A DNA stretch of 64,000 bases from assembly GCF_041248615.1 (NCBI RefSeq), contig NZ_CP158426.1; one strand, 5' to 3'. The DNA comes from Escherichia coli (GTDB taxonomy: Bacteria > Pseudomonadota > Gammaproteobacteria > Enterobacterales > Enterobacteriaceae). Shown here piece after piece: positions 1 through 14,929 of the stretch; position 1 is the stretch's first letter; every line of letters starts with the position of its first letter. The notes below the pieces were generated by a model. The model worked only from the letters and a program-made list of their open reading frames with translations. It was not told the DNA's origin and did not search any database. The translations under genes and the position numbers were made by a program.

Positions 1-1117
1 TCGCCGCGAAACACTGGTAATCGGGCAGTATGGGCGTGACGGTATCAGCCTGGCAGAAGCGCGAGAAGAACTGATTGCTGCAAAGAAGCTGCTTAAAGCA
101 GGCCAGTCGCCGGCCGCGGCTAAACGTGACGGTATCAAAAAGATTCGTGGTGCCGAGACGTTTGCGGTACATACCGACAGTTATATGAAACACGTCATCC
201 TGGCTGAAAGTACCCGCGCAATGAAGCAGGCAGTGATCGACCGTGACATACTTCCGGTTCTTGGCAACAAAATGATGGCTGAAATTACCACATCGATGGT
301 TCGTGATTTGTGTGACCGGATTGTCGAACGCGGTGGTCGGGCAACAGCAGTACAGGCCAGGGAGATCATCAGCAGCGTATACCGTCACGCCAATGACCGT
401 GGTCATGGTTTGTTTAATCCTGCGGCTGACATTAAACCTTCGTCTATCGCCATATTTAAACCACGAGAGCGAACACTGACACCAGAAGAAATTGGTCTGT
501 TCTTCCGCACGCTGGATGCCATTGGTGCTATGGGCACTATGAAAATGGCTTTAAAGCTGGTGCTTATCACTATGGTCCGTAAAGGCGAATTCACCAATGC
601 AACGTGGGATGAAATAGATTTTAAAAAATGGACATGGACAATTCCTTCAGACCGCATGAAGGGAAGTCGGGCGCACGTTATTTACCTGCCTAAACAGGCA
701 CAGGATATATTAGTCGGGTTGCAGATGTGCGCTGGTGGAAGTGAATATCTGGTTCCTGGTCGTTACAATTTCCGGAAGCCATTATCTAATGCCGCGCTGA
801 ACTCTCTGATCGACAGAACGGTGAAAATAATAAATGAAGATGGTGAGCATATTCAGGACTTCACCGTACACGATATGCGCCGTACAGCCAGTACGTTGTT
901 GCATGAGGCTGGTTATCCTTCAGACTGGATTGAAAAGGCTCTGGCACATGAGCAGAAAGGTGTGCGCGCCGTATATAACAAAGCGGAATACGCCAGACAG
1001 CGCGCCTACATGTTGCAGCAGTGGGCCGATATGATTGATTCCTGGATTAACGGGGAGCATACGGATCTGATTCCGTTCTCCCCGTCGAAGTTTGAGAGGT
1101 GGATGGCGGGGGAATAA
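1..1117 (+). CDS. int: Tyrosine integrase (P4-like), 5'-partial
   Basis: Reading frame is open from window position 2 and continuous with ORF 185..1117; C-terminal catalytic region HDMRRT...VRAVYNKAEY...WAD typical of tyrosine recombinases. Confidence 0.88.
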   Translation, partial: RRETLVIGQYGRDGISLAEAREELIAAKKLLKAGQSPAAAKRDGIKKIRGAETFAVHTDSYMKHVILAESTRAMKQAVIDRDILPVLGNKMMAEITTSMVRDLCDRIVERGGRATAVQAREIISSVYRHANDRGHGLFNPAADIKPSSIAIFKPRERTLTPEEIGLFFRTLDAIGAMGTMKMALKLVLITMVRKGEFTNATWDEIDFKKWTWTIPSDRMKGSRAHVIYLPKQAQDILVGLQMCAGGSEYLVPGRYNFRKPLSNAALNSLIDRTVKIINEDGEHIQDFTVHDMRRTASTLLHEAGYPSDWIEKALAHEQKGVRAVYNKAEYARQRAYMLQQWADMIDSWINGEHTDLIPFSPSKFERWMAGE

Positions 1118-1120
1118 CGT

Positions 1121-1315
1121 TTAATTATTCTGCTGATTTTCTTCCATCTCGGCTTCTGCTGCCAGTGATTCAATTTTATCTGCGAATATTGCTGACAGTG
1201 TTGCAAATTCAGCATCAGTGACAGCGGGAATTGGAACAAACCTGATCCCGCTGTGTGCAAGCATGTTTGCAGTTTCAAGGCATTTCCTTAAATCTGCTGG
1301 TGATGCCCTGTTCAT
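1121..1315 (-). CDS. Hypothetical small protein (64 aa), start overlaps stop of methyltransferase gene (ATGA)
   Basis: In-frame ATG at 1315 overlapping MTase stop; the longer 104-aa ORF in the track is likely an overcall. Confidence 0.35.
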   Translation of the reverse strand: MNRASPADLRKCLETANMLAHSGIRFVPIPAVTDAEFATLSAIFADKIESLAAEAEMEENQQNN

Positions 1316-1962
1316 GCTGCACGCTCCCGCCCCTGGTTGTCTGTTGGTGACAGCGGAGCATTGCTGAATGCATTTGTTAATCTGGCAATATCCAACGCGT
1401 ATCCAGGGTGTAGTTGCACTGCCGGGTCTTCGCACTGATTACCCCAAACATCGAAACCATGAGACGACTGGCGGGCGAACAGTTCAATGCGAGAAACATC
1501 GCCTAACAATTGCACAAGTTTTTCACGAACGATATCTGGTTTTCTTGAATGCTCAAGCCGCGGTGCGGTAAATGACTGAACGATCCCTGCATTAATGCGC
1601 GTAGGTAGTTTTCCCTTTACCGCAAACAGGCAATCTTCACTATTGGCGCGAGTCATGTGCCCCATACCCATAACCAGTTTATCTGGTTGTCGACTACCAC
1701 ATTTTATCCACGTGAAGCCCTTCATCGTCATCAGACGAAATCCCCAGGCTTCAACAACTTTTAGTGCTTCGAGTGGTTGTGTTGGCACCCACCACATGGC
1801 CAACAGACAGTTTTCATCGGCCAAATCCCACACAGGAAGGCGGCAGATATCCATCACACTCATAACCGGATATTTAAAACCGGCACCGCGATTACCATCT
1901 GCGGCTTTGTCCCGGTATACCCAGGGTGGATCTGCATAGATTAGTGTGTATTTCTTAGTCAT
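1312..1962 (-). CDS. MT-A70 family DNA N6-adenine methyltransferase (orphan)
   Basis: Motif YADPPW near N-terminus (DPPW catalytic motif); no adjacent restriction endonuclease. Confidence 0.7.
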   Translation of the reverse strand: MTKKYTLIYADPPWVYRDKAADGNRGAGFKYPVMSVMDICRLPVWDLADENCLLAMWWVPTQPLEALKVVEAWGFRLMTMKGFTWIKCGSRQPDKLVMGMGHMTRANSEDCLFAVKGKLPTRINAGIVQSFTAPRLEHSRKPDIVREKLVQLLGDVSRIELFARQSSHGFDVWGNQCEDPAVQLHPGYALDIARLTNAFSNAPLSPTDNQGRERAA

Positions 1963-2254
1963 AAACCACCCCGCAACATCCTATACCGCTATAGTCGCCA
2001 CGGCGAAGGCCGTTACCTTTTGTGATACATTGGTCCCTGCGAACCGCGATCCTTGCACGCTCAACATCACCAGAAGCAACATCCATACACTGAAGCCAAA
2101 GGTGAGCGGCAATGCGGAACTGTCCTTTTTTCTCTCTTTCAATTGCGCGTTTTTCGATCTCTATCGCCGCAGGAGTAACGGCGACAATCTTTGACGGACT
2201 GCGCATTGAAACCTTGTTCATGTGATATTTTTCAAGTCGGCTTAACTTTCTCAC
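1955..2254 (-). CDS. Hypothetical early protein
   Basis: ORF in early leftward operon, 8-nt overlap with downstream MTase start; no recognised motif. Confidence 0.4.
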   Translation of the reverse strand: MRKLSRLEKYHMNKVSMRSPSKIVAVTPAAIEIEKRAIEREKKGQFRIAAHLWLQCMDVASGDVERARIAVRRDQCITKGNGLRRGDYSGIGCCGVVYD

Positions 2255-2363
2255 TTAATCCAACCCTCTCTGAAAATTAATGCCAGCAGATAAAGCCATG
2301 CTGAAACAGAGGCCAGGAATAAGTACCATCCTGACCATTTGCTCCAGTGCCTTAGCAGCACAC

Positions 2364-2612
2364 TCATGCAGCGTTGCTCACAGGACGATATACACGTTGC
2401 TGAACAGGAGGCTTTTTACCCTGGAACTCTGCCGGGCTTGCTGCCTGACGTTCATCAAGCCAACGCTCAACTTCGTCACGGTTCCATGCGCAGCGTTTGT
2501 CAGTGATATACCAGCGTTTAGGAAATTCACCTGCGCGCTCCATACGGTCGATAGTGCTCCATGACAGTGGCACCACCGCCAGGAGTTCCTTCTTACCTAA
2601 TGCACCTTTCAT
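2364..2612 (-). CDS. AlpA-family DNA-binding protein / putative excisionase
   Basis: 82 aa; LSWSTIDRMERAGEFPKRWYI...WNRDEVERWLDER matches AlpA/Xis-type winged HTH; located near int. Confidence 0.65.
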   Translation of the reverse strand: MKGALGKKELLAVVPLSWSTIDRMERAGEFPKRWYITDKRCAWNRDEVERWLDERQAASPAEFQGKKPPVQQRVYRPVSNAA

Positions 2613-2661
2613 AAATACCTCTCTTGGTTGCAGTGCGGCGCGCGTGGCGCCGCGGTGGTGG

Positions 2662-3543
2662 TTACATAGATGTTTCGTTTAATTCTTCCCGACGAACGCT
2701 GTAAACGTCGGTGGCTTTTGCCAGCAGTTCGTCATCATCTGAAAGTTTTTGTGCAATGTATTTGTAAGCCTTATCCAGTTCGGAGACAGTGCTGTAATTC
2801 ATCGCTGCGCTGGTAAAGGCCATCAGCATTTCTTCTGGATCACGGCTATCCGCTTTACGCGTTTGCTCATCATGCTTTTTCACTGGTTTAGCGTTGATCA
2901 GACTGTTCATTCCCGCAGCAGTAGTCGTTTGCGGAGTAATGTCTCGCTCAACGCGCGGTGCCGTTTCCTGTAATTCGTCAGGGGTGTAAACACCGAGAAG
3001 CACATCAGGAGCGTGCAGGCGAGCCCATCGTTTCGTGCAAAGATAGGCAAGCTGCTGGCGCGGATCCTGTTCCCACAATGGAGAGTTACGCACTCCGGCT
3101 TGCGCCATACTGATGGTAAGCTCACGGGGTTCTGCTTCTCCTTTAAGAACTGCTGACACAGTTACCGTCAGATTCGGTGATTTATCTGTTTTGCCGTTAA
3201 CATTCGACCAGTCACCGCTCCAGCGATAATTCAGGCGTGTCGCTAGCAGGCTGGAAGAGGATACGACCGCGTTTACCAACTGTGCTTCGTAGCCTAACGT
3301 TCCGTTTACCACATGCGTTTTCTGCGCCACGGCGAAAGGGTTCATTCCCCACTGTGCCGCCTGCATGGTCACCGCCAGACAATCGGCAGGTTTGCCTTCA
3401 AGATGTTTCGGTACAGTCGCTTTGCTTTGTGACATCAACTCCGCGAAACGCACCAGTTGATTCATGCCCTCGGGGCTGAAGATTGCCGCAGCAGTGCCTA
3501 CAGTTGCGCCTGGTTGTGATGTGATTGCGATATCATTGCTCAT
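2662..3543 (-). CDS. Single-strand annealing protein, Bet/RecT family
   Basis: 293 aa; GMNPF region and ERDITP motif shared with lambda Bet; immediately downstream of exonuclease gene with 4-nt overlap. Confidence 0.6.
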   Translation of the reverse strand: MSNDIAITSQPGATVGTAAAIFSPEGMNQLVRFAELMSQSKATVPKHLEGKPADCLAVTMQAAQWGMNPFAVAQKTHVVNGTLGYEAQLVNAVVSSSSLLATRLNYRWSGDWSNVNGKTDKSPNLTVTVSAVLKGEAEPRELTISMAQAGVRNSPLWEQDPRQQLAYLCTKRWARLHAPDVLLGVYTPDELQETAPRVERDITPQTTTAAGMNSLINAKPVKKHDEQTRKADSRDPEEMLMAFTSAAMNYSTVSELDKAYKYIAQKLSDDDELLAKATDVYSVRREELNETSM

Positions 3544-4361
3544 ACGTACATATCCTGTTTACGTGCCCAGTCAGGGCGTTTAATAATTTCCACGCCGCCC
3601 CATTCATCATTTATGCGGCATTCGTGATAGGTATTCAGATCCCGGCGGAACAGAGCGTGCCCGGCATCGACATCCGGCGCATCCAGCTCGAACACGCGTA
3701 CCGGATACCGACCACAATCAATGCTTTCGCTCACGGCAAGAAAGAAAAAACCATGCGGTTGACCAGTAACCCTCATTGCGCCTTCGCGGTACATTGCGTC
3801 CTGCACGTGGTAGCGGAATTCCTCGATGTGGCGTGCAAAACGGTCCATATCTGCAACCTTTTTCACGTCGACGATCACGTTGTGCTCGTTCAGCCATTTG
3901 TCTGGACGAATGCGGCACAACTCACCCGTCTCTTCATCGTTCCAGTACATTGATGCTTCGCAGTAACCAGGTGCTTCCAGCATCCAGCGTGCCGCCGGAT
4001 GAGCCATTGCGCTATCACGCATGAGCTCAAGTTTTCGCCACTGCTCGACATCAAGTACCGTAATACCCATATCCGCCACATCACGAAGAAATGCTTCTTC
4101 GTCAGCTTTACCTTGTTTTGTCCGACGATCGAATTTCGGTGAAACGATGAAGCGTTTGTCAAACTCTCCAGGTTCCAGAAGCAGACAGTGCAGAGCAGTA
4201 CCCATGTCCAGTGCAGACTTCTTCTCTTCGTCTTCCGGAGCAGCCTTCACCCATTTCAGAAGGGCAGGGTTCTTAGCCACCATATCTAGCTGCGACTTAC
4301 TCACGCCGTCACCGGCGTGGTAGTCCTCGTTGCTGATATCGAAATAAATTCCCGGATTCAT
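3540..4361 (-). CDS. PD-(D/E)XK exonuclease (RecE/YqaJ-like) partner of the annealase
   Basis: 273 aa; N-terminal ISNEDYHAG..SKSQL and RPDKW...VDVKK nuclease motif. Confidence 0.6.
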   Translation of the reverse strand: MNPGIYFDISNEDYHAGDGVSKSQLDMVAKNPALLKWVKAAPEDEEKKSALDMGTALHCLLLEPGEFDKRFIVSPKFDRRTKQGKADEEAFLRDVADMGITVLDVEQWRKLELMRDSAMAHPAARWMLEAPGYCEASMYWNDEETGELCRIRPDKWLNEHNVIVDVKKVADMDRFARHIEEFRYHVQDAMYREGAMRVTGQPHGFFFLAVSESIDCGRYPVRVFELDAPDVDAGHALFRRDLNTYHECRINDEWGGVEIIKRPDWARKQDMYV

Positions 4362-4672
4362 GCCGCGTCCCTCTGCCCATCAATCTGATCAGCCAGATCC
4401 CAGCGGGCGATAATTGCCATTGCCTCGCGCCGGTAGGCATCCATCAGTTCTTCGAACTCAGGGCTGTCTTTAGCAGCCTCCAGCACTTCCTGACGAACGC
4501 CTTTGCCTGTTACAACGTCGAAAGTTGAGGACAGTTGATGAAGTCGGATGCTCTCAATCAGTTCAACTTGTCGGTCATATAGCTGTTCTGACAGGCGGTA
4601 GTCCTTGTCGAATGCCAGCATGATTTTTTGAAGATTTTTCTGCTGATTAACGTTCATTATCAGCCCTCCCAT
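4358..4672 (-). CDS. Hypothetical early protein (104 aa)
   Basis: ORF in leftward early operon overlapping exonuclease start; no motif recognised. Confidence 0.45.
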   Translation of the reverse strand: MGGLIMNVNQQKNLQKIMLAFDKDYRLSEQLYDRQVELIESIRLHQLSSTFDVVTGKGVRQEVLEAAKDSPEFEELMDAYRREAMAIIARWDLADQIDGQRDAA

Positions 4673-4812
4673 ATCTCGTTATCGTTGGCTACATCGCGAG
4701 CTTCTTTGCTGACGAAAGCCCACTTAATGCCTTCCTGTAAGGTGCGGAACTTCCAGCTCATGAATCCGCATGCAGTAACGCAGTACCAACCGTTGATGAT
4801 TTTCCACTGCAT
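4660..4812 (-). CDS. Possible small protein (50 aa), first gene of leftward operon
   Basis: ATG at 4812 preceded by GAGG; below ORF-track threshold; speculative. Confidence 0.25.
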   Translation of the reverse strand: MQWKIINGWYCVTACGFMSWKFRTLQEGIKWAFVSKEARDVANDNEIWEG

Positions 4813-4818
4813 AACTTG

Positions 4819-4908
4819 TTACCTCGGTCTGTTACTGTTGAGGTAATGATTATGCGTATCTGGTTTGATGTCAATAGATATGAGTTAAAAAAATTACCCA
4901 TAAGGTAA
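4819..4908. promoter_or_regulatory. OL-like operator cluster: TTACC half-site at 4819, TTACTGTTGAGGTAA (4832-4846), TTACCCATAAGGTAA (4894-4908)
   Basis: TTACC-N5-GGTAA palindromes located between repressor gene 3' terminator and first leftward early gene. Confidence 0.55.
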
Positions 4909-4920
4909 TCTTGTTGGCAA

Positions 4921-4944
4921 TAAAAAAGCCGCCATAAGGCGGCT
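4921..4944 (-). terminator. Rho-independent terminator downstream of repressor gene
   Basis: Stem AGCCGCC/GGCGGCT, loop ATAA, A-run on plus strand = T-run on minus. Confidence 0.6.
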
Positions 4945-4965
4945 TACTTACTGAAAAATATGATT

Positions 4966-5550
4966 TTATTGTTTGTTTTTTTCGTTCTGGTTGATGACAA
5001 ATTCAATGTAACTTTCGATCTTTGCCTTCTCTGTTTCAGGTAACAATGCGTAGCGCGAGCGGTCATAGTTGATAGTTGCAGGGTCATGCGGATGAATCAG
5101 TAGTTCATATCCGTGACGCCCGAATGCAGATGCAACATTCTCCAGGGTGGAAATGGAAACGCTGACTTCATTGTTTAACAGGCGGCTTATTGTCACCTGG
5201 GCGACGCCGGATGCGCGGTGAAGTTTTCCCTGAGTTGAAAGGTCGCGGCTTTCACTCATCCAGCGTTCCAGGTTGTGAGCTGCCAGCTGACCAATGTCGC
5301 TTGGGCCGACAGGCTGAAAACCTTCCTGAGAAAGCGAGCGATCGATATCAAGCCAGTTACGGGGTTTATTGGCGGCAGCTTCAATTTTTCGCGCAACCTG
5401 GTCGCCGATAACCTTCTTGCCAAGAGCCCAGCGGTTTACCAGATTTGCCTGAGTTCCAAGTTTTTCTGCCATCCGCGTCTGAACACCATTGAATTCACGG
5501 TCGATCAAGTCGTTGAGATTTTGCCTGCGGACGTCCTGGATACTTTTCAT
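4966..5550 (-). CDS. CI-like prophage repressor with two HTH (XRE-type) domains, no S24 peptidase domain
   Basis: 194 aa; two HTH-like segments (res ~10-65 and ~100-150); divergent from Cro-like gene; operator clusters on both sides. Confidence 0.6.
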   Translation of the reverse strand: MKSIQDVRRQNLNDLIDREFNGVQTRMAEKLGTQANLVNRWALGKKVIGDQVARKIEAAANKPRNWLDIDRSLSQEGFQPVGPSDIGQLAAHNLERWMSESRDLSTQGKLHRASGVAQVTISRLLNNEVSVSISTLENVASAFGRHGYELLIHPHDPATINYDRSRYALLPETEKAKIESYIEFVINQNEKNKQ

Positions 5551-5605
5551 TTTCTGGAAAATCGCCTCATATATGAATCAGTAGATGATTCAATTTAAAG
5601 CAATA

Positions 5606-5668
5606 TTACCCAACAGGTAAATGCACCTCATAGGTAACTATCCTTGATTTTTGTTACCTTATGGGTGA
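5606..5668. promoter_or_regulatory. OR-like tripartite operator: TTACCCAACAGGTAA (5606-5620), GCACCTCATAGGTAA (5623-5637), TTACCTTATGGGTGA (5654-5668)
   Basis: Three 15-bp palindromic sites in the 154-bp gap between divergent repressor and Cro-like genes. Confidence 0.65.
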
Positions 5669-5679
5669 ATATTTATTAT
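5651..5679 (+). promoter_or_regulatory. Candidate pR: -35 TTGTTA (5651-5656), 17-bp spacer, -10 TATTAT (5674-5679)
   Basis: Sigma70-like hexamers with 17-bp spacing; third operator overlaps the spacer. Confidence 0.45.
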
Positions 5680-5704
5680 CTGAAATAAATATCAGGCAAT
5701 AGCT

Positions 5705-5935
5705 ATGAGCGATAACGGACATTTCGATTTCAAAAAGCACTGGCTTGCACTTACTCCGGATGAGCGTGAAGCCTTCGCACAGGAAGCCGGAACGACGAGT
5801 CACTATATCCAGACTCACTTAACAGGTAAGCGCAAAATGCCAGGTAAAGTATTGATGAATGGGCTTTTTAAAGCCTGTAAAACAAGACAATGGCTGCGCT
5901 CAAAAGCAGAACTGGCATACTTCTTCTACTCATGA
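5705..5935 (+). CDS. Cro-like small DNA-binding protein
   Basis: 76 aa, divergent from repressor, followed by terminator; HTH-like segment AFAQEAGTTSHYIQTHLTGKR. Confidence 0.5.
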   Translation: MSDNGHFDFKKHWLALTPDEREAFAQEAGTTSHYIQTHLTGKRKMPGKVLMNGLFKACKTRQWLRSKAELAYFFYS

Positions 5936-5956
5936 TATCCAGCCACAACCCTCTGT

Positions 5957-5980
5957 AGACCGCCACCCGGCGGTCTTTTC
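5957..5980 (+). terminator. Rho-independent terminator after cro-like gene
   Basis: Perfect 8-bp stem AGACCGCC/GGCGGTCT, loop ACCC, followed by TTTTC. Confidence 0.7.
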
Positions 5981-5990
5981 ATATCTATTC

Positions 5991-6005
5991 GTACCTCAAA
6001 GGTAA
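5991..6005. promoter_or_regulatory. Operator-like site GTACCTCAAAGGTAA downstream of cro terminator
   Basis: Imperfect TTACC-N5-GGTAA palindrome preceded by ATATCTATTCGTA, a 13-mer that recurs at 34241. Confidence 0.45.
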
Positions 6006-6085
6006 TAAAAAACCAAATCTGGTTGATCTTTTTTTTGTGTCAGCACAAAATGACCGTAATCCCAATACTAATAACAGGGCTTACC

Positions 6086-6286
6086 ATGGAAATCATTACA
6101 CGTATTGATGCCGCAAAGCGCGGACTTAAACGCTACTACACCGGAAAAACATGTAAGCACGGACATGACAGTGAACGCTGGGTTTACAACGGACACTGTG
6201 TTGAGTGCACCATGGAATCAAACCGTCGCATCAGGGCAGAGATTAAGCAGATCATGATTAATTCCTCCCCACAACATTCAAGCTGA
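6086..6286 (+). CDS. Small Cys/His-rich (zinc-ribbon-like) protein, possible regulator
   Basis: 66 aa from ATG 6086; CKHGH...CVEC motif; the longer track ORF from 6023 lacks an RBS. Confidence 0.4.
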   Translation: MEIITRIDAAKRGLKRYYTGKTCKHGHDSERWVYNGHCVECTMESNRRIRAEIKQIMINSSPQHSS

Positions 6287-6301
6287 TAGCGGAGATTAAT
6301 C

Positions 6302-7117
6302 ATGAGCAGACATGCAACAGATTGGGCCTGGGAGACAGATCCAGGTAGCTCGTCATTAAAGCTCATACTGCTCTCGATGGCTGACAGAGCCGATGAATAT
6401 AACCTCTGCTACCCCAGCATAGAACGCCTCGTTAAAGACACTTGCCTGAATAAAAAAACCGTGCAGGCCGGGCTTATATCGCTCATGAAAATGGGGCTTA
6501 TTTCAGATACCGGAGAGAGAAAGGGGGCGACGAAAAGAGTACGGGTTTTCTCTCTTAATATAACCAAAAACGGGAACATTAAAGGCAACCGGGAGGGGGG
6601 TAATGAACCCGAAAACGGTAATGTTACCGAAAACGGGAATATACCCAAAAACGGGATGTTGAATGATCCCAAAAACGGGATGTTGAATGATCCCAAAAAC
6701 GGGATCCAGAACCAGTCATATAACCAGTCATTTAACCAAGAGAGGGAGAGCAGGACAAAAAGCGGGGATTCTGTGCCTCATGACCCCGGCGCAAACAACG
6801 CCGTGATGAATAACTTTGTTCCTCCTGGTGGGCCAGGGCAATTAGGCAAATTTGTCATGCATGAACAATGGCAGCCATCAGATGACTTTCTTCGGAAAAG
6901 CTCATTGCAGGGGATCTACCTGGACAGTCTGCCAACGGCACAGGAACTTGCAGAGTTCAGAATTTACTGGATGGCTGAGGGTAAGGCATACCATCAGGCA
7001 CAGTGGGAGCAGAAGCTGGCAAGGCGGCTGCAGATTAGCAGACAGAAGCAATCAACATTACCTGATAACAACGTTCCGCACTGGAACAGCCCTGAAGCAT
7101 GGGAGGATTTCTTGTGA
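6302..7117 (+). CDS. Replication initiator (O-like) with N-terminal HTH and DnaT-like C-terminal domain; contains origin iterons
   Basis: C-terminus GKFVMHEQWQPSDDFL...EFRIYWMAEGKAYHQAQWEQKLARRLQI resembles E. coli DnaT C-terminus; iteron array inside gene. Confidence 0.7.
   Translation: MSRHATDWAWETDPGSSSLKLILLSMADRADEYNLCYPSIERLVKDTCLNKKTVQAGLISLMKMGLISDTGERKGATKRVRVFSLNITKNGNIKGNREGGNEPENGNVTENGNIPKNGMLNDPKNGMLNDPKNGIQNQSYNQSFNQERESRTKSGDSVPHDPGANNAVMNNFVPPGGPGQLGKFVMHEQWQPSDDFLRKSSLQGIYLDSLPTAQELAEFRIYWMAEGKAYHQAQWEQKLARRLQISRQKQSTLPDNNVPHWNSPEAWEDFL
6564..6707. repeat. Iteron array (6 direct repeats CC(A/G)AAAACGG(G/T)A..., including a perfect 24-bp tandem duplicate 6644-6667 / 6668-6691); probable phage origin of replication
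   Basis: Direct repeats read in sequence inside the O-like gene, analogous to lambda ori within O. Confidence 0.6.
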
Positions 7118-7899
7118 ACAACGTTTTTACCGCGATACAAAACCGTGACGGAGAAGCCCTTTCTCGCATGTCAGGTTATGAGCATCAGTACGTCAACAAT
7201 GACAATGTGGTGAACATGTCAGCAGAGAGGCTTGTTGATGCCCTTTTTAAACAGCTGAAACAACTGTTTCCGGCGGCAGTGGTAACCAACCTGAAGACGC
7301 CAGAGCAGGAAGTTGCTGCAAAACAGCAGTGGATTGCTGCGTTTGCCGAAGGGGGGATCCGAACCCGTGAACAGGTTTCTGCTGGTATGCGCCACGCCCG
7401 CGCCAGTGAATCTCCGTTCTGGCCGTCTCCAGGGCAATTTATCAAGTGGTGCAAAGACAGCAAGATGGTTCTTGGCGTCACCATTGACGATGTGATGGCG
7501 GAGTTTCACCGGTACAGCAAGGAAAAAAGTTTATATCCTGGTGGTCCCGAAAGATTCCCGTGGCGACATCCGGTTATGTACTGGGTCGTATGTGATACCC
7601 GCCGTGCAATGTATCAGCGCCAGCTTAGCGAGATTGAGGTTGAGAAACACGCGCGCAGGCTGCTCGATGATTGGGCGAAAAAGGTGGCTTCCGGACAGCA
7701 GATACCCGATCCGGTGATCAGCATACAGGCAAAGCCAGAACCCATGAGTACACCTCCGGACACAGGGAGAGACGTTTACCATCCACCAGGGCGAAGTTTC
7801 GGGTGCATGCCTAACGCCGCCACCCTTGGGGGAATAACACCGGCGCAGTGGCTGATGGAGGAATACAGGCGGGGAAAGGCGGCAGGATTTATCAAGTAA
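7099..7899 (+). CDS. Replication protein P-like helicase loader
   Basis: Segment QQWIAAFAEGGIRTREQVSAGMRHARASESPFWPSPGQFIKWC aligns with lambda P (RRQWVLAFRENGITTMEQVNAGMRVARRQNRPFLPSPGQFVAWC); true start may be slightly downstream of 7099. Confidence 0.75.
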   Translation: MGGFLVNNVFTAIQNRDGEALSRMSGYEHQYVNNDNVVNMSAERLVDALFKQLKQLFPAAVVTNLKTPEQEVAAKQQWIAAFAEGGIRTREQVSAGMRHARASESPFWPSPGQFIKWCKDSKMVLGVTIDDVMAEFHRYSKEKSLYPGGPERFPWRHPVMYWVVCDTRRAMYQRQLSEIEVEKHARRLLDDWAKKVASGQQIPDPVISIQAKPEPMSTPPDTGRDVYHPPGRSFGCMPNAATLGGITPAQWLMEEYRRGKAAGFIK

Positions 7900-7936
7900 T
7901 ACCAGCGCGATAGCGCATTTTTTTACGCCTCGACAA

Positions 7937-8013
7937 TTACCTGTTAGGTAATAAAATATTCTAAAATCTATTGATTTCGTGTCTTATGTGGTTTTTAATT
8001 ACCTCAGAGGTAA
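7937..8013. promoter_or_regulatory. Two operator-like palindromes TTACCTGTTAGGTAA (7937-7951) and TTACCTCAGAGGTAA (7999-8013) flanking TTATGTGGTT motif
   Basis: Perfect TTACC-N5-GGTAA sites in gap between P-like gene and next gene; second site ends 3 bp before ATG 8017. Confidence 0.5.
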
Positions 8014-8016
8014 ATC

Positions 8017-8370
8017 ATGAGAAAACAGATACAGGCTCTTGGTCGACTCAAAACAGGTCAGATGAACAAAACAGAATCTGCGTATTGCCAGCACCTTGAG
8101 CTGCGTAAACGTGCAGGAGAAATCGTCTGGTATCGATTTGAGGGTATCAAGCTGCGGTTAGCTGACAACTGCTTCCTGACTGTAGATTTTGCCGTGATGT
8201 TGGCTGACGGGCAGTTGGTGATGGTGGACGTTAAGGGAAGTAAGTCAGTCTTTACTGACGATGCGAGAGTCAAGATGAAGGTTGCGGCAGACAGCTATCC
8301 GTTTGTCTTTCAGGTTGCTTATCCAAAACCTAAAAAGCTCGGTGGTGGATGGGAGGTTGAGGAACTATGA
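8017..8370 (+). CDS. Hypothetical protein, DUF1064-like, possible PD-(D/E)XK nuclease fold
   Basis: 117 aa; D...VDVKG motif; family assignment from memory only. Confidence 0.45.
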   Translation: MRKQIQALGRLKTGQMNKTESAYCQHLELRKRAGEIVWYRFEGIKLRLADNCFLTVDFAVMLADGQLVMVDVKGSKSVFTDDARVKMKVAADSYPFVFQVAYPKPKKLGGGWEVEEL

Positions 8371-8975
8371 GCGAGAAGCCCAATGCTGCGGGATTGATTG
8401 TATCCGGTGATAAAAACCCGAATTGGAAGGGTGGGAAAATCGAAAAGGTTTGTTCCGTATGTGGCAGGCAATATCAGGTTAAGCGAGCCAACTCATCTTC
8501 AAGGTTCTGCTCACTTCAGTGTGTAGGAATTTCACAGCGAGGCAAGACGGTAAATCGGGAACTAAAGCGAGTATTAAAAATATGCTGCGTATGCGGATCT
8601 TCGTTCTCCGTTTTCTTGAGTCATGAGAAGCGTCATAAATGCTGCTCGAAACAGTGTTCCAACATAATGCGTTCTTCTCTGATGAAGGGGGAAGGAAATC
8701 CAAACTGGTCTGGTGGATTATCGAGATTGCCGTATCCGTGGGATTTCCGAGAAACGAGCAAGAGGGTTATTGAGCGAGATGGTTTTACTTGTCAGAACCC
8801 AGGTTGTGATGGAACAGACAAAAGGCTAACAACTCATCACATCAATTACGACAAGCAAGACTGTCGTCAGGAGAACCTTATTTGCCTTTGTTCGAGCTGT
8901 AACTCGAAGGCTAATTTCGGTCGGCATAAGTGGCAAAAGTTTTATGAATCACTGATGAAAAATAGATCGGCATGA
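8367..8975 (+). CDS. HNH endonuclease with two N-terminal zinc-ribbon-like modules
   Basis: 202 aa; C-terminal HHINYDKQDCRQENLICLCSSCNSKAN (HNH motif); two CxxC...C..C clusters. Confidence 0.7.
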   Translation: MSEKPNAAGLIVSGDKNPNWKGGKIEKVCSVCGRQYQVKRANSSSRFCSLQCVGISQRGKTVNRELKRVLKICCVCGSSFSVFLSHEKRHKCCSKQCSNIMRSSLMKGEGNPNWSGGLSRLPYPWDFRETSKRVIERDGFTCQNPGCDGTDKRLTTHHINYDKQDCRQENLICLCSSCNSKANFGRHKWQKFYESLMKNRSA

Positions 8976-9036
8976 ATCGACGATCTTTTTAGTTATCAAT
9001 GTAATCAATAAGTTATGCGGATAAGCGAGGGTAAAG

Positions 9037-9618
9037 ATGGAAAGTAATATCAAAGGGTTAGTTGCCGCCGGGCATGAGATGGCTTCGGAACTGAAAGCAG
9101 AATGTGGTGCCGTTGATATGCGTAGTGTGGCAAAGCTGATCAGCGATTTGGCAACGCAACTGGAAGTGCAACTGGTGCGTGCTAATGCGCTGGCCGAAGA
9201 CCAACAGAAAGCGATTGAGTCAATTAAGCAGGCTGATTCGGCTGTTAAGTTGGCACACGAGAAGTTTTCGGCGCTGGCAGCGGAGAATGCAAAGCTGAAG
9301 AAGTTCTGCAAAGACGCTGCATTCGATGCCGATTACGAAGCAGAGCTAGGTATGGAGAGAGGTGGATTCAGTGATGCGCTTAACGAAATCAAAACCCCAG
9401 CCACCGATGCTTTCCTGGCTGAAGTGCGGGCGCAGGGCGTGGATGCTGCTATAGAAGCTGCAAAAAATCTGGTGGCCCAAGAATATGAGTATAAGGATTT
9501 CAAAGCGGCGCAGAGTGATTGCTGTATGCACCCTGGTTCAGACCTGGTAGGGAAGGTTGAAATAACTGAGTGGTTAGTTGACTTTGCTGCCCAGCTTCGC
9601 AAAGGAGGCAACCAGTGA
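9037..9618 (+). CDS. Hypothetical coiled-coil protein
   Basis: 193 aa, alanine/glutamate-rich heptad-like stretch; no motif recognised. Confidence 0.45.
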   Translation: MESNIKGLVAAGHEMASELKAECGAVDMRSVAKLISDLATQLEVQLVRANALAEDQQKAIESIKQADSAVKLAHEKFSALAAENAKLKKFCKDAAFDADYEAELGMERGGFSDALNEIKTPATDAFLAEVRAQGVDAAIEAAKNLVAQEYEYKDFKAAQSDCCMHPGSDLVGKVEITEWLVDFAAQLRKGGNQ

Positions 9619-10100
9619 CTGGACATGCAGCAATCCTCGACATGTGCTGTGGCAGTCGCATGTTCTGGTTCGATAAGAATGACGACCGGGCGATATTTAG
9701 CGATATCAGAAAGGAAGAGCACACATTGTGTGATGGACGACGGCTGATAATTAGCCCTGACCTGATAGCAGATTTTCGTGCATTACCATTTGCAGACGCA
9801 TCGTTTCCGGTTGTTGTATTCGACCCTCCGCATCTTGAGCGTGTTGGTGATAACGCTTGGATGGGAAAGAAATATGGACGGCTGAATAAAGATACCTGGC
9901 GTGATGATTTGCAGCAGGGATTTAAAGAAGCCTTTCGTGTGTTGTGGCCATACGGCGTTCTGATTTTTAAATGGAATGAAACGCAAATACCTGTTCGCCA
10001 AATATTGGCACTGACCGACAGAAAGCCTGTTATCGGTCAACGAACAGGAAAGGGTGACAAGACCCACTGGATTATTTTTATGAAGGAGGGCAACCAGTGA
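9615..10100 (+). CDS. Small SAM-dependent DNA methyltransferase (DPPH motif; N6-A or N4-C)
   Basis: 161 aa; motif I-like ILDMCCGSRMF and motif IV VVVFDPPH; GTG start overlapping upstream stop. Confidence 0.55.
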   Translation: MTGHAAILDMCCGSRMFWFDKNDDRAIFSDIRKEEHTLCDGRRLIISPDLIADFRALPFADASFPVVVFDPPHLERVGDNAWMGKKYGRLNKDTWRDDLQQGFKEAFRVLWPYGVLIFKWNETQIPVRQILALTDRKPVIGQRTGKGDKTHWIIFMKEGNQ

Positions 10101-10864
10101 GCAAAATTGACTATCAGGCACTGCGTGAAAAGGCAGAGAAAGCAACGTGTGGTGTGTGGTCGCTCGAATATGGAGAGAGCCGATTTGATTGTGATGATGC
10201 GCTAATTCATCGTGACGTTGTTGGATATCTTCCCATTTGCAGAATTGAAGGAGCGCATCCTGAAAGCGGTTTCGATGAAGATTTCCAGATGGAACAGCAG
10301 GCCAATGCTGAATTTATTGCTGCCTTTAATCCAAAGGTTGCTTTGGCACTACTGGATGAACGGAAAAAAAACCAGCAATACATCAAATCCCGCGACCAGG
10401 AGAACGAGGATATTGCGCTAACGGTAGGGAAGCTGCGCGTTGAGCTGGAAGCAGCAAAAAAGCGCATAGCAGAACTGGAGAAAAGCGAAGAGCAACTCAT
10501 CAACGAGCGTGACCATGCTGAGTCTGCTTTAGCTGATATGTACTTTGCAGCAACCGGGGATAGGCCTGAGTGGAGTAACTGGTTCGGCTTTTCAGATGCC
10601 GTCGATGCCGTAGTTGACAGAATTGCTGATTTAGAAGCTAAACAATGCATTGAAGAGATGAGTAAACAAAGTTGCGAAGCTCGGGAGCGTGATTTGTTTG
10701 AATCATGGGTAATGCATTCAATTTGTATTTCCAAATCGACGCTTGAAGGATTGCGCACCGAAACTGGATACCGTAACGCGACCTTATCAGGAACAGACTT
10801 CAACCGCATGTGGGAACAATGGAAATCTATCCGCGCCGCTGGCATTCGCATCAAAGGAGAGTGA
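10097..10864 (+). CDS. Ead/Ea22-like early protein
   Basis: 255 aa; N-terminus MSKIDYQALREKAEKATCGVW resembles Ea22-like prophage proteins (memory-based); central coiled coil. Confidence 0.5.
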   Translation: MSKIDYQALREKAEKATCGVWSLEYGESRFDCDDALIHRDVVGYLPICRIEGAHPESGFDEDFQMEQQANAEFIAAFNPKVALALLDERKKNQQYIKSRDQENEDIALTVGKLRVELEAAKKRIAELEKSEEQLINERDHAESALADMYFAATGDRPEWSNWFGFSDAVDAVVDRIADLEAKQCIEEMSKQSCEARERDLFESWVMHSICISKSTLEGLRTETGYRNATLSGTDFNRMWEQWKSIRAAGIRIKGE

Positions 10865-10865
10865 T

Positions 10866-11414
10866 ATGACCACTATAACCGATAAGAAACAGTATCCCAG
10901 CGAGCAATATCTTAATGAGCTGATCACCAACATAGAGTTTGCTGCAAGGGCACCAGTTGAAGTCGTGAGAGCGATGGCAGCAGAGCTACAGAAGCGGCGC
11001 GAAGCTGATAGTGCAGAACCTGCAAGTAATCATGAAGAGTTGCCGCTTGATTATCTCCAAGGTCAAAAAGATGGTCTTGAATGGGCTGCGCAGCTTGCAG
11101 AAGCAAATCACCCACAAACTGGCGACTGGCTTTACGATGACCCGCTGGAGCTGGCTAAAGCTATCAGAAAAGGTCCTGACATGCCCGAATTCGATGGACC
11201 AACTCCGGTAACTCCGGATGGTTGGATAAGCTGTAGTGAGCGAATGCCCGCTCAAGATGATTGGATTTTAATTTATTCAAAGCACGGCGAGTATATGGCA
11301 GGACAGGTACAAGGGGAATACGTGGAGTTGAGCGACGGCACTTTATCGTGGTTAGGGAACGCCTTGTACTGGATGCCTCTACCGGAACCGCCGCAGGAGG
11401 TTAACCGTGGCTAA
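10866..11414 (+). CDS. DUF551-like protein
   Basis: C-terminal WISCSERMP...ALYWMPLPEPP resembles DUF551 signature; ATG 10866 immediately after upstream stop (track ORF start 10743 rejected). Confidence 0.5.
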   Translation: MTTITDKKQYPSEQYLNELITNIEFAARAPVEVVRAMAAELQKRREADSAEPASNHEELPLDYLQGQKDGLEWAAQLAEANHPQTGDWLYDDPLELAKAIRKGPDMPEFDGPTPVTPDGWISCSERMPAQDDWILIYSKHGEYMAGQVQGEYVELSDGTLSWLGNALYWMPLPEPPQEVNRG

Positions 11415-11688
11415 CCTGCAACTAGCCGTTAAAGGTGAATACTTCGATGCCATCATTCGCGGAGAGAAAACGGAAGAGTATCGCCTGTGTAATGACTACT
11501 GGAATAAGCGAATTATGTTCAGGGATTATGACCGACTGATTATCACAAAGGGATATCCGAAGCGCGACGACTCCAGTCGTAGAATTGACGTCCCGTATGA
11601 CGGATATGAAATCAAGACAATCACACATCCCCACTTCGGCGATAAACCGGTAAAGGTATACGCGATAAAGGTAAATATTGATGGCTAA
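11407..11688 (+). CDS. ASCH-domain-like protein
   Basis: 93 aa; GEKTEEYR resembles ASCH GxKTxExR motif. Confidence 0.45.
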   Translation: MANLQLAVKGEYFDAIIRGEKTEEYRLCNDYWNKRIMFRDYDRLIITKGYPKRDDSSRRIDVPYDGYEIKTITHPHFGDKPVKVYAIKVNIDG

Positions 11689-12019
11689 ATCAGCAGCAGA
11701 GCGCAAAGCCGCTCAGAGAGCCAGACAAGCTGCATCTGGTGTGCGTAAGCTGGAGATTGTGCTTGATGCTCAGGAAATTGAAATGCTGGAGCGTAACTGC
11801 GCCGCCCGGCGCCCTGGTCGAGATCCCTATGAAATGGCCGAGTACATCGCGCTGCTGATCCGCCAGGATGATGCCCGGGTGCGCGGGCGTATAAAATCGA
11901 TCAGCAGAAAACGTTGCGGTAAGTGCGGCGAGAGAGTTCCAGTTAATTCATGCCCGTGCAATGGTGACTCGCAATGCTGGGTGACTAAAGGCTGGCATGA
12001 AACGAAATTAATAGTGTGA
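11678..12019 (+). CDS. Hypothetical protein with C-terminal Cys cluster (CGKCG...CPCNGDSQC); candidate regulator
   Basis: 113 aa; stop codon TGA lies inside palindrome GTGACATGTCAC; last gene before packaging module. Confidence 0.45.
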   Translation: MMAKSAAERKAAQRARQAASGVRKLEIVLDAQEIEMLERNCAARRPGRDPYEMAEYIALLIRQDDARVRGRIKSISRKRCGKCGERVPVNSCPCNGDSQCWVTKGWHETKLIV

Positions 12020-14852: not shown

Positions 14853-14929
14853 TGGCGTGGCATGCAGGATTCGAACCTGCGACCAACCGCTTAGAAGGCG
14901 GTTGCTCTGTCCGACTGAGCTAATGCCAC
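14853..14929 (-). tRNA. tRNA-Arg (anticodon UCU), phage-encoded
   Basis: 77 nt; reverse complement GTGGCATTAGCTCAGTCGGACAGAGCAACCGCCTTCTAAGCGGTTGGTCGCAGGTTCGAATCCTGCATGCCACGCCA; 7-bp acceptor stem, T-loop GGTTCGAATCC, anticodon loop CTTCTAA, encoded CCA; close to E. coli argU in layout. Confidence 0.85.

Follow-up and report, generated by a model that had tools for sequence, protein, structure and literature searches.

Orphan methyltransferases of prophages

Some phage enzymes methylate the adenine of GATC without a restriction partner, as is the case for T4 Dam, P1 Dam and M.EcoVT2Dam. Orphan enzymes also reside in prophages of Escherichia coli. M.EcoGI and M.EcoGII were found to be non-specific and silent in lysogens, and an anti-restriction role was proposed for them (PMC5778455). 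The described enzymes closest to the one analysed here are M.EcoGV, from the Stx2a phage of E. coli O104:H4, and M.EcoPA8orf6770P (gp5), from the Stx2a phage PA8; the PA8 and O104:H4 enzymes are 99% identical to each other. When overproduced, M.EcoGV reportedly methylates GATC in vivo (PMC10810198), and it is listed as GATC-specific (PMC6602927).

The study of purified M.EcoPA8orf6770P gave another result. Alone, the enzyme showed near-background activity on DNA, Dam-free DNA included. Together with PNB-2 it formed a 1:1 complex in vitro, which prefers 16S rRNA and 30S subunits, and the mutation of DPPW to APPA led to loss of the induction and virulence phenotype (PMC10810198). The authors proposed that the C-terminal tail of the PA8 type matters for PNB-2 binding, and reported that AlphaFold failed on the complex of the methyltransferase with PNB-2. 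They also stated that the 16S rRNA result comes from a SAM-consumption assay and that the modified base was not identified (PMC10810198). The two accounts disagree: close homologues are listed as Dam-like GATC enzymes on in vivo grounds, whereas the sole biochemical study describes a methyltransferase of 16S rRNA that depends on a partner and controls the induction of Stx prophages. The solved relatives of the MT-A70 family act as heteromeric complexes (PMC7544214).

Position of the genes in the prophage

The window, i.e., the whole 64-kb stretch of DNA that was analysed, matches NZ_LT599825.1 at 100%, and the coordinates of the prophage genes agree exactly with the RefSeq annotation there. 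The prophage, of E. coli NRZ14408, is phiV10/epsilon15-like and is integrated adjoining guaA. The first-pass annotation had described a prophage with two methyltransferase genes, bearing DPPW and DPPH, with no cognate restriction gene, and with the stop of the MT-A70 gene overlapping the start of a 64-aa open reading frame. This description was borne out. The phiV10-type gene content and RefSeq agree on the prophage; the two genes are supported by their reading frames, PHROG, PADLOC and RefSeq, and the MT-A70 gene also by Pfam; no restriction gene is annotated in the prophage; and the overlap is an ATGA at 1312-1315. The genes themselves are already known from RefSeq, the phiV10 record and the REBASE-derived model libraries. 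The features that the argument needs are the following.

1..1117, plus strand: P4-type tyrosine integrase, 3' part (Pfam Phage_integrase and Phage_int_M), convergent with the operon
1121..1315, minus strand: DUF1382 / lambda Orf63-like gene, 64 aa (PF07131; RefSeq WP_001077940.1), last gene of the leftward early operon
1312..1315, minus strand: ATGA stop/start overlap of the methyltransferase TGA and the DUF1382 ATG, read from the sequence, inside the junction GCAGCATGA
1312..1962, minus strand: MT-A70 family (beta-class, DPPW) adenine methyltransferase gene, 216 aa (reading frame and sequence; Pfam PF05063; RefSeq WP_192459670.1)
1955..2221, minus strand: PerC-family small regulator gene, 83-99 aa depending on the choice of start (Pfam PF06069, 30.1 bits, cutoff 22.6; phrog_868, E = 5.7e-62; RefSeq and phiV10 annotation)
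2251..2367, minus strand: 38-aa hydrophobic open reading frame, translation MSVLLRHWSKWSGWYLFLASVSAWLYLLALIFREGWIK, equivalent to the phiV10 p35 'membrane protein' (mapped by coordinates)
2364..2612, minus strand: AlpA-family excisionase/regulator gene (Pfam PF05930; phrog_66; RefSeq and phiV10 annotation), upstream in the same operon as the methyltransferase
9615..10100, plus strand: minimal class I SAM-dependent amino-methyltransferase, 161 aa, predicted from its reading frame and phrog_954 (E = 9.1e-88); RefSeq WP_192459672.1

Positions 1121-1962 hold the final two genes of the leftward early operon. Counted from int, the order is int, DUF1382, MT-A70, PerC, AlpA, RecT, exonuclease and repressor, and an identical gene arrangement is annotated in phiV10 with 97-99% identity. 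The integrase gene (RefSeq CDS 1439867-1441117) starts 133 nt ahead of the window, next to guaA, and its stop lies 3 nt from the stop of the DUF1382 gene. What seems to be a gap between the AlpA-like and PerC-like genes is occupied by the 38-aa reading frame, which is absent from the RefSeq annotation of the genome. The stop of the PerC-like gene overlaps the start of the methyltransferase gene by 8 nt. A scan of 900-6300 for promoters and terminators gave counts no higher than those of shuffled sequence and nothing usable near 1100-2400; its sole notable features were a promoter-like element (positions 4874-4846) and a hairpin resembling a terminator (4945-4926), immediately downstream of the repressor gene, both on the minus strand. 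No RNA family of Rfam matched within 1-12000. Judged from gene order, the early-left lytic operon that contains the MT-A70 gene is probably silent in the lysogen. A methylome comparison of lysogen and cured strain that returned no motif would therefore be uninformative, since the operon is probably repressed in the lysogen and host Dam would mask GATC.

The MT-A70 methyltransferase

The 216-aa protein begins with MTKKYTLIYADPPWVYRD and has its DPPW motif at residues 11-14. It matches PF05063 over the whole length of the model (residues 5-176 against positions 1-172 of 172; 80.6 bits with a cutoff of 23.9; E = 1.7e-22) and the PHROG 'DNA methyltransferase' family (E = 2.9e-120). The MTase_II and orphan-MTase models of PADLOC match the methyltransferase genes of the prophage at 257 and 243 bits, and no NCBIfam family matches the MT-A70 protein. 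The DPPW motif stands near the N-terminus, ahead of the SAM-binding region, which is the permuted order, and aligns with the DPPW of ciliate MTA1. Sequence matches in the PDB are MTA1 (E = 2.5e-13) and METTL3 of METTL3-METTL14 (E = 4e-06), and they cover residues 3-172. Among 20 homologues down to 60% identity, P12 and W14 never vary, the conservation of D11 and P13 is 90% or higher, and some 55 further positions are likewise invariant. The protein is predicted to be an intact adenine-N6 methyltransferase.

The catalytic core comprises residues 1-187, whereas the C-terminal tail, residues 188-216, is lineage-specific. No target-recognition domain can be recognised in this core of about 187 aa, although sequence-specific DNA enzymes usually have one. 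The AlphaFold model, made with 20 close homologues in the alignment, was poor (mean pLDDT of 68, with loops and tail below 50).

The core places the protein in the prophage family of M.EcoGV and M.EcoPA8orf6770P, as judged by alignment. Over residues 1-187 it is 82% identical to the PA8 enzyme (90% positives, E = 1e-123) and likewise 82% identical to M.EcoGV over 187 aa. All are prophage-borne orphans of the MT-A70 type with an N-terminal DPPW, encoded by the penultimate gene of a leftward early operon near int. The family is large, with 2566 homologues, and the gene of the window type, with an identity of at least 95%, was found in 537 of the 5426 complete genomes of E. coli (about 10%). Its surroundings are variable on both flanks. 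In P22-like phages a 68%-identical homologue sits between ninB and ninD, and in the phages of the L111 type the gene comes first in an island with three methyltransferase genes, of which the second is a homologue of the 161-aa DPPH protein and the third a C5-cytosine DNA methylase (PF00145, 70.8 bits). Neither the P22-type nor the L111-type gene has a DUF1382 gene nearby. The MT-A70 gene is a self-contained module that occupies several different operon positions across temperate enterobacterial phages.

The DUF1382 gene and the conserved junction

The product of the last gene matches PF07131 over the full model (residues 1-60 against positions 1-60 of 60; 105.7 bits with a cutoff of 27; E = 1.3e-30) and the lambda Orf63 chain of PDB entry 8dsb (E = 5.8e-13); no NCBIfam family matches it. 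Lambda Orf63 has been described as pro-lytic (PMC10869804), a phenotype that was reported within the family for lambda and phi24B only (PMC10869804, PMC5575149). It is a dimer with a ligand-binding cleft, the partners of which are not known (PMC10869804). The lambda gene, too, is small and early-left, situated between int and the recombination genes, but its neighbours are orf60a and orf61, and no methyltransferase is close by. The protein of the window resembles the 'second Orf63-like' paralogue that follows the methyltransferase in Stx phages (PMC8614690), and is 49% identical to gp4 of phage PA8.

The first-pass annotation laid emphasis on translational coupling of this small gene to the methyltransferase, and one could suppose that its product is an accessory or regulatory subunit of the enzyme, made in matching amounts through the coupling. 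The ATGA overlap is accompanied by a good ribosome-binding element, a Shine-Dalgarno-like GGGAG 8 nt upstream of the DUF1382 ATG, and the ligand-binding cleft of the Orf63 dimer counts in favour as well. The DUF1382 gene directly follows the methyltransferase in 23 of 23 loci of the PA8 type and in the Stx phage records, though the proteins are only 49% identical, and in three of the 80 close-relative loci it stands immediately upstream instead. However, the junction GCAGCATGA is kept in 77 of those 80 loci ahead of at least 11 different downstream genes. DUF1382 is the downstream gene in only 36 of them (about 45%), a Ser/Thr phosphatase takes the same place in 21, and unrelated small reading frames in the rest. 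Lambda Orf63 and the methyltransferase genes of the P22 and L111 types do without each other, and four-base overlaps are routine in this prophage, where they occur at 10 gene junctions by the annotated coordinates. A subunit role for the DUF1382 protein is consequently regarded as very improbable.

Comparison of these neighbourhoods indicates that the 64-aa gene fills a slot for swappable cargo and is not a methyltransferase-specific partner. The translational coupling would then be generic, because the slot lies behind a conserved GCAGCATGA stop/start junction. Of the earlier claim, the overlap stood, whereas the special partnership did not, given the 11 or more downstream genes found behind the junction and the 10 four-base overlaps. 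For the PA8 homologue, moreover, experiment has shown a partner that is encoded upstream and not downstream (PMC10810198).

The second methyltransferase and orphan status

The 161-aa protein is encoded in the early-right eae/ead region, and its gene overlaps both neighbours, an eae-like and an ead-like gene, by 4 nt. It contains an N-terminal motif I of the SAM-binding type (LDMCCGS) and a motif IV (VVVFDPPH) with DPPH at residues 70-73. Residues D9, D30, R32 and D70-P71-P72-H73 are invariant in 45 diverse homologues. The protein shows the class I pattern: a Rossmann-type fold, a motif I rich in glycine, an acidic residue following strand 2, and DPPH. Its AlphaFold model is good (pLDDT of 93.7) and matches generic class I methyltransferases; the nearest solved structures in the fold search are RNA and small-molecule enzymes. 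A sequence search of the PDB gave no match, no family of Pfam or NCBIfam reached its threshold, and the MTase_II and oMTase models of PADLOC did match. We take the protein to be a second, independent, predicted orphan minimal amino-methyltransferase, for which DNA as the substrate is an annotation label from PHROG and PADLOC. In the phages of the L111 type its homologue adjoins the C5 DNA methylase. The DPPH family counts 7492 homologues and was found in 942 E. coli genomes (about 17% of the complete genomes). It is a very widespread family with thousands of members and without a Pfam family or a solved relative, and finding its substrate would fill a gap in annotation.

Inactivating changes in the catalytic motifs, which would have told against the first-pass claim of two methyltransferases, were looked for in both proteins and none was found; the motifs are intact and conserved in the homologues compared (20 and 45, respectively). 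This bears on the view that the two genes are silent or decaying passengers without current function. Such a view could appeal to M.EcoGI and M.EcoGII, which are not expressed in lysogens (PMC5778455), and to a few damaged relatives: one with a premature stop (L055), one with a frameshift (L077), and the L081 type, in which a deletion leaves a short fragment of the DPPH gene. Both genes of the window, however, are full-length with every invariant residue in place, their families are large and strongly conserved (2566 and 7492 homologues; 537 and 942 E. coli genomes), and the phenotype of the PA8 homologue depends on the catalytic motif (PMC10810198). We give the passenger view very little credence.

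Both methyltransferases are orphans, as the RefSeq annotation of the prophage contains no restriction endonuclease gene and the contexts examined for homologues of either enzyme show no conserved nuclease neighbour. The only unannotated nuclease-like reading frame of the prophage, at 8367-8975, precedes the gene of the 161-aa methyltransferase by 640 nt on the same strand. From this proximity it might be argued that one of the two enzymes supplies the modification activity of a restriction-modification system with its nuclease elsewhere in the prophage. However, the reading frame falls in a phage HNH family of the homing type (phrog_1271), related phage records with either methyltransferase lack a match to it at the corresponding position, and the PADLOC model for orphan methyltransferases matches as well. 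The HNH reading frame was rejected as a cognate nuclease on account of its family and of its absence from that place in related phages. Together with the homologue contexts, this makes a restriction-modification system hardly credible.

DNA or rRNA as the substrate

The first-pass annotation had held the target specificities to be unknown. This was too strong for the MT-A70 enzyme, since it overlooked the published GATC and 16S rRNA work on a core of 82% identity. Neither result can be transferred cleanly to the enzyme of the window, because the C-terminal tail and the upstream gene differ. After residue 187 the tails are unrelated: here 29 aa ending in GYALDIARLTNAFSNAPLSPTDNQGRERAA, in PA8 21 aa ending in IVKFLEKTNERKNDVDKGITS. 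The loci of the PA8 type share the layout, in that a small upstream gene overlaps the start of the methyltransferase gene with its stop and a DUF1382 gene follows, but the upstream gene is PNB-2 in PA8 and PerC-like here. The hosts of the genes also differ, PA8 being a Sepvirinae Stx phage and the present element a podovirus of the phiV10 type. BLASTP of the PerC-like protein against PNB-2 gave no alignment, and homology of the two was rejected on that ground; tblastn with PNB-2 on the sampled loci of the 216-aa window type gave no match either. Tail and upstream gene go together: all 21 loci with the PA8 tail have PNB-2, and a PerC-like gene stands upstream wherever the tail of the 216-aa window type was sampled. 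The paired PerC-like and methyltransferase sequences are nearly identical among relatives.

The reading to which we lean, with modest confidence, is that the MT-A70 enzyme is an orphan, lytic-phase, Dam-like DNA adenine methyltransferase, with GATC specifically being less probable than the DNA reading as such. The early operon would be derepressed on infection or induction and the enzyme made; with SAM it would methylate adenines in replicating phage DNA, most probably those of GATC, as Dam does. Progeny genomes would leave fully methylated as a result, and full methylation may protect them from restriction enzymes that are blocked at methylated GATC-containing sites, or may support Dam-dependent control. 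The DUF1382 protein would be an accessory protein like lambda Orf63, not a subunit of the methyltransferase. The L111-type island with its C5 DNA methylase suggests, by guilt by association, a function in DNA modification. GATC itself is not depleted in the prophage (140 sites, observed/expected 0.92, similar to the host flank), which fits every reading. What runs against a DNA substrate is the near-background activity on DNA of the purified PA8 homologue when alone (PMC10810198), the core of about 187 aa without a recognisable target-recognition domain, and the heteromeric state in which the solved MT-A70 relatives act.

The main competitor, which we consider rather unlikely, is that the enzyme is mainly an RNA adenine methyltransferase acting on 16S rRNA in the 30S subunit and directed by the PerC-like upstream product in the place of PNB-2. 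Expressed from the prophage, it would tune translation and, through it, spontaneous prophage induction. The 82%-identical core of the PA8 enzyme, with its 1:1 partner complex and its preference for 16S rRNA and 30S (PMC10810198), argues for this, as do the overlap of the upstream gene with the methyltransferase start, as in PA8, and the presence of a PerC-like gene upstream in 77 of 80 close loci. The co-occurrence of tail type and upstream gene type points the same way, and METTL3, a writer of m6A in RNA, is among the closest solved relatives. However, no similarity between PNB-2 and the PerC-like protein could be detected, and diverged relatives carry intervening genes that separate the PerC-like gene from the methyltransferase by 147-1089 nt. 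The gene directly upstream may also be NinB, DUF1382, a 52-aa or an 82-aa reading frame, so that there is no universal partner. The assay behind the rRNA result measured SAM consumption and did not identify the modified base (PMC10810198), and in some phages the associated C5 DNA methylase points to DNA.

The two substrates could also be combined, although we consider this quite improbable: the core of about 187 aa may be a catalytic cassette that is retargeted by swapping a C-terminal docking tail and a small protein encoded upstream. If this were true, the partner would be PNB-2 in Stx phages, the PerC-like protein here and other small proteins elsewhere, and the same enzyme would write m6A on GATC DNA in one phage but on RNA, be it 16S rRNA or some other, in a second phage. 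The PerC-like 'transcriptional activator' of this prophage would then be a methyltransferase specificity subunit.

Comparison with known systems

The nearest described counterpart of the locus as a whole is phiV10, in which p31-p36 (integrase, DUF1382, DNA methyltransferase, PerC-like activator, membrane protein and AlpA) agree with the present locus in gene content, order and overlaps; the nucleotide identity is about 98.8% for positions 1100-2300 of the window. In the early-right region of phiV10, in contrast, neither the 161-aa DPPH methyltransferase nor the HNH reading frame finds a match. M.EcoGI and M.EcoGII resemble the MT-A70 enzyme in being prophage-borne, beta-class orphan adenine methyltransferases of E. 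coli, but they are not described as MT-A70 proteins, are 349 aa long, and have DPPY and a central target-recognition domain (PMC5778455). An identity of the present enzyme with M.EcoGII was rejected for these differences of length, motif and domain. The ciliate MTA1 complex and METTL3-METTL14 are the closest solved systems by sequence and share the DPPW site and the permuted motif order; they work as obligate heteromers with extra DNA- or RNA-binding subunits. T4 Dam, P1 Dam and M.EcoVT2Dam belong to different protein families and motif classes, and the likeness to them that we propose is functional only. This use of phage Dam-type orphan methyltransferases as an analogy is drawn in part from PMC6602927. 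With M.EcoGV and M.EcoPA8orf6770P the enzyme of the window has the core in common and differs in tail and upstream gene, which makes it a useful comparison construct for establishing what sets the substrate.

The prophage and its leftward early operon

Window positions 1-3600 are 100% identical to the chromosome of E. coli isolate NRZ14408 (NZ_LT599825.1, from position 1440001). In the RefSeq annotation of that record, a prophage of approximately 39 kb lies directly 3' of guaA and extends from the start of a P4-type integrase, 133 nt before the window, to lysis genes ending near window position 39141. Its early region and structural genes match Escherichia phage phiV10 (genus Uetakevirus, epsilon15-like podoviruses), with 98.8% identity over window 1100-2300. 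The leftward early operon is tightly packed and contains, in transcription order:

4660-4812 and 4358-4657: two small ORFs
3540-4361: PD-(D/E)XK exonuclease
2662-3543: RecT
2364-2612: AlpA-like regulator
2251-2367 (-): 38-aa hydrophobic ORF, MSVLLRHWSKWSGWYLFLASVSAWLYLLALIFREGWIK, verified by translation
1955-2221 (-): PerC-like protein
1312-1962 (-): MT-A70 methyltransferase
1121-1315 (-): DUF1382 protein

The phiV10 record has the same gene order, namely integrase (p31), DUF1382 (p32), DNA methyltransferase (p33), PerC-like activator (p34), 38-aa membrane protein (p35) and AlpA (p36), and the module is the p32-p34 arrangement of that phage. The 38-aa ORF, annotated as p35 in phiV10 and missing from the RefSeq record of NRZ14408, lies in what looks like an empty stretch between the AlpA-like gene, whose stop codon it overlaps, and the PerC-like gene. 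The PerC-like stop and the methyltransferase start overlap by 8 nt, and the DUF1382 stop lies 3 nt from that of the convergent integrase gene. A terminator-like hairpin and a promoter-like site (4874-4846) come after the gene for a repressor-like HTH protein (4966-5550). Overall, the promoter and terminator scan returned no more sites than shuffled sequence, so the timing of expression is deduced solely from gene order. The operon is probably silent in lysogeny.

The 216-aa methyltransferase starts with MTKKYTLIYADPPW and carries DPPW at residues 11-14, as seen in the ORF listing and the sequence. It covers the whole of PF05063 (MT-A70, 80.6 bits), as the 64-aa protein does PF07131 (DUF1382, 105.7 bits). 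The methyltransferase and the 161-aa DPPH protein encoded at 9615-10100 (+) match PHROG 'DNA methyltransferase' families (E=2.9e-120 and 9.1e-88, respectively) and MTase_II models of PADLOC, a library of anti-phage defence protein models (257 and 243 bits). These family scans confirm the MT-A70, DUF1382 and 161-aa ORFs as genes. The DPPW enzyme, its stop overlapping the 64-aa start, and the DPPH enzyme had all been named in the first-pass annotation, and all are present. Of 5426 complete E. coli genomes, 537 carry the window-type MT-A70 gene. It is very unlikely that the window copy is a silent relic. Identity with M.EcoGII was rejected, as that enzyme has 349 aa and a DPPY motif.

Other features of the prophage were recorded alongside. 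The small regulator at 1955-2221 (-) is of the PerC family (Pch-like), and the phiV10-type prophage that carries it is widespread. In EPEC and EHEC, PerC/Pch proteins switch on the LEE virulence island, so this prophage could alter host expression wherever such targets are present. A tRNA-Arg gene is annotated in RefSeq between the terminase and portal genes (14853-14929 (-)). An Rfam search of 1-12000 matched no RNA family. CTAG is strongly depleted across window 1-39200 (13 sites; observed/expected 0.09 by base composition and 0.41 by a Markov estimate); E. coli and its phages commonly avoid this tetranucleotide.

The stop/start junction and the DUF1382 gene

The ATG of the 64-aa ORF overlaps the methyltransferase TGA as ATGA, with a GGGAG element 8 nt upstream. 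The overlap is genuine but nothing exceptional: four-base overlaps are found at ten gene junctions of the prophage in RefSeq coordinates, two of them flanking the 161-aa gene.

The 64-aa protein matches PDB 8dsb (E=5.8e-13), deposited as 'Xis (Excision72)', the aligned sequence of which we take to be lambda Orf63. An NMR study describes Orf63 as a dimeric, phage-restricted early protein with pro-lytic effects, the partners of which are not known (PMC10869804). The neighbours of orf63 in lambda are orf60a and orf61, and no methyltransferase gene is close by.

The junction was surveyed in 80 viral loci encoding close relatives of the MT-A70 enzyme. In 77 of them the junction reads GCAGCATGA or a near variant, and the ATG of the next gene overlaps the stop. 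DUF1382 lies directly 3' of the methyltransferase in 36 loci and directly 5' in three, and had no match in the other 41. What follows the conserved junction is DUF1382, a lambda-type Ser/Thr phosphatase (21 loci) or one of nine or more further ORFs, unrelated and 53-120 aa long. As the same junction precedes many unrelated genes, it behaves as a module boundary; the position 3' of the methyltransferase is a cargo slot, and the coupling is generic. The frequent adjacency of DUF1382 might suggest a methyltransferase subunit, but with so many relatives lacking it nearby this is hardly credible.

Many MT-A70 homologs share an Ala-Ala ending (...AA), encoded by GCAGCA just before the overlapping ATGA (window 1312-1320 (-); A1; viral loci L002-L167), and so do a 703-aa C5 methylase and the 52-aa upstream ORF of locus L074. 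This may reflect recombination or a ribosome-binding constraint only, or also a C-terminal Ala-Ala degradation signal.

The 161-aa DPPH protein and orphan status

The 161-aa protein has LDMCCGS near its N-terminus and VVVFDPPH at residues 66-73. It also matched the PADLOC 'orphan methyltransferase' model; no Pfam or NCBIfam family scored above threshold and no PDB sequence matched. The family is very large (7492 proteins at E<=1e-5; 2009 cluster representatives at 50% identity), and D9, D30, R32, P48, DPPH (70-73), E105, R108, K119 and W120 are invariant in 45 diverse homologs. AlphaFold gave a confident minimal Rossmann methyltransferase (mean pLDDT 93.7, pTM 0.88). The DPPH motif points to an exocyclic or amide nitrogen as the methylation target; that the substrate is DNA comes from annotation, not from a result. 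The gene had no match in phiV10. Its best phage DNA matches are Stx2c phages (95.7%), and 942 of 5426 complete E. coli genomes carry it at >=80% nucleotide identity, in up to five places per genome.

The first-pass annotation held that neither enzyme has a cognate restriction enzyme, which agrees with the RefSeq annotation of the prophage, where no restriction endonuclease is found. The single unannotated nuclease-like ORF (8367-8975 (+), 202 aa, with CxxC pairs and an HNH motif) belongs with phage HNH endonuclease families (phrog_1271, E=3.7e-23) and weakly matches Pfam HNH_3 and PADLOC ZorE-type HNH models. It had no match at the corresponding position, between the DUF1064 and eae-like genes in phiV10-type records, nor in Stx phage records. 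On both grounds it was rejected as a cognate restriction enzyme, and it looks like a homing-type insertion. A hidden restriction partner is regarded as highly improbable.

Genomic contexts of the methyltransferase

The directly upstream gene also varies: PerC-like in the window type, PNB-2 in the PA8 (Stx2a phage) type, an ORF of approximately 52 aa in L074, DUF1382 in L060, L061 and L071, NinB in P22-like phages and an 82-aa ORF in L111. With both flanks variable, the gene has the look of a mobile, self-contained module. In P22-like prophages, ninB and ninD flank a 196-aa homolog with 68% identity.

Four loci (L111 3001-6388, L113, L118 and L119) hold a three-methyltransferase island that starts two ORFs 3' of a DnaB-type helicase gene. 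A 200-aa MT-A70 homolog is joined by an ATGA overlap to a full-length DPPH homolog (78% identity to the 161-aa protein), and the third gene encodes a 703-aa C5-cytosine DNA methylase (PF00145, 70.8 bits). By association, the island argues for a DNA modification role of both families. In sibling loci (L081 4600-4770; L112, L115-L117, L123), the DPPH gene is cut after approximately 30 codons and runs in-frame into the last 25 or so C5 methylase codons (MTNAATILDMCCGSRMFWFDKQDERAVFTD followed by NAVPPPFAEALVRANLPELCVSREAA), a deletion that removed most of both genes.

Proposed function and comparison with the PA8 enzyme

The closest studied relative is M.EcoPA8orf6770P, the DPPW-containing MT-A70 product of gp5 of phage PA8 (Gong, Chakraborty and Koudelka, NAR 2024; PMC10810198). 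Alone, the purified enzyme showed near-background SAM consumption, whether on RNA or on DNA (dam- DNA included). It co-purified with PNB-2, which the overlapping upstream gp6 encodes, at a 1:1 ratio, and the complex preferred 16S rRNA and 30S subunits; the modified base was not identified, according to the authors. A DPPW-to-APPA variant did not complement the spontaneous-induction and virulence phenotype, and gp6 and gp5 are apparently transcribed from a stationary-phase promoter (PMC10810198). For M.EcoGV, a highly similar enzyme of the O104:H4 outbreak strain, the same paper notes GATC methylation in vivo upon overproduction and a REBASE listing of such proteins as GATC enzymes; M.EcoGV homologs are likewise listed as GATC in a methylome paper (PMC6602927).

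On balance, we lean slightly towards the MT-A70 enzyme methylating DNA, as an orphan adenine methyltransferase acting in the lytic phase. The methylation would then probably be Dam-like and might complete that of rapidly replicating phage DNA; GATC as the specific target is proposed more tentatively. This reading draws on GATC methylation reported in vivo for an enzyme with an 82%-identical core, on the C5 DNA methylase found next to some homologs, on locations among genes of DNA metabolism, on the lack of a universal partner gene and on the 140 undepleted GATC sites of the prophage. Against it stand the PA8 study, with its negative in vitro result on DNA and a holoenzyme that preferred rRNA, and the lack of a target-recognition domain. 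A comparison of lysogen and cured methylomes is unlikely to be informative, since the lysogen probably does not express the operon and any GATC methylation would be hidden behind that of host Dam.

The main rival is an rRNA methyltransferase acting with a partner, for which the PerC-like protein is the candidate; we consider this rather unlikely. In a second set of 80 loci, the window-type tail always accompanies a PerC-like gene and the PA8-type tail accompanies PNB-2 in 21 of 21; each type may, however, represent one clonal lineage. In more distant relatives, the PerC-like gene and the methyltransferase lie 147-1089 nt apart, with other genes in between. L005 and L038, otherwise of window type, have a 1089-nt insertion there, possibly an insertion sequence or additional gene. 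The database protein P0005 (297 aa) joins PerC and MT-A70 Pfam domains in one chain, probably because of a frameshift or misassembly at the 8-nt overlap; were the fusion natural, it would matter for the partner hypothesis.

PA8 (KP682374.1) is arranged as int, HTH/Xis, DUF1627, DUF1382 (gp4), methyltransferase (gp5), PNB-2 (gp6) and PNB-1 (gp7), an ORF6N-domain protein (Pfam) and anti-repressor by PHROG. From the layouts of PA8 and PA28, we take the second Orf63-like copy of Stx phages (PMC8614690) to be the one 3' of the methyltransferase. PA8 gp4 is 49% identical to the window DUF1382 protein, whereas PNB-2 has no similarity to the PerC-like protein. The window enzyme lacks both the PA8-type tail and an upstream PNB-2 gene, so a role as 16S rRNA methyltransferase should not simply be carried over to it. 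PA8 gp5 is 82% identical to it over residues 1-187, with unrelated tails beyond, and the same 82% holds for the enzyme of O104:H4 phage P13374, a 99%-identical counterpart of gp5. The window enzyme is a member of the M.EcoGV/M.EcoPA8orf6770P family; public records already annotate all genes here, and work on a close homolog has been published.
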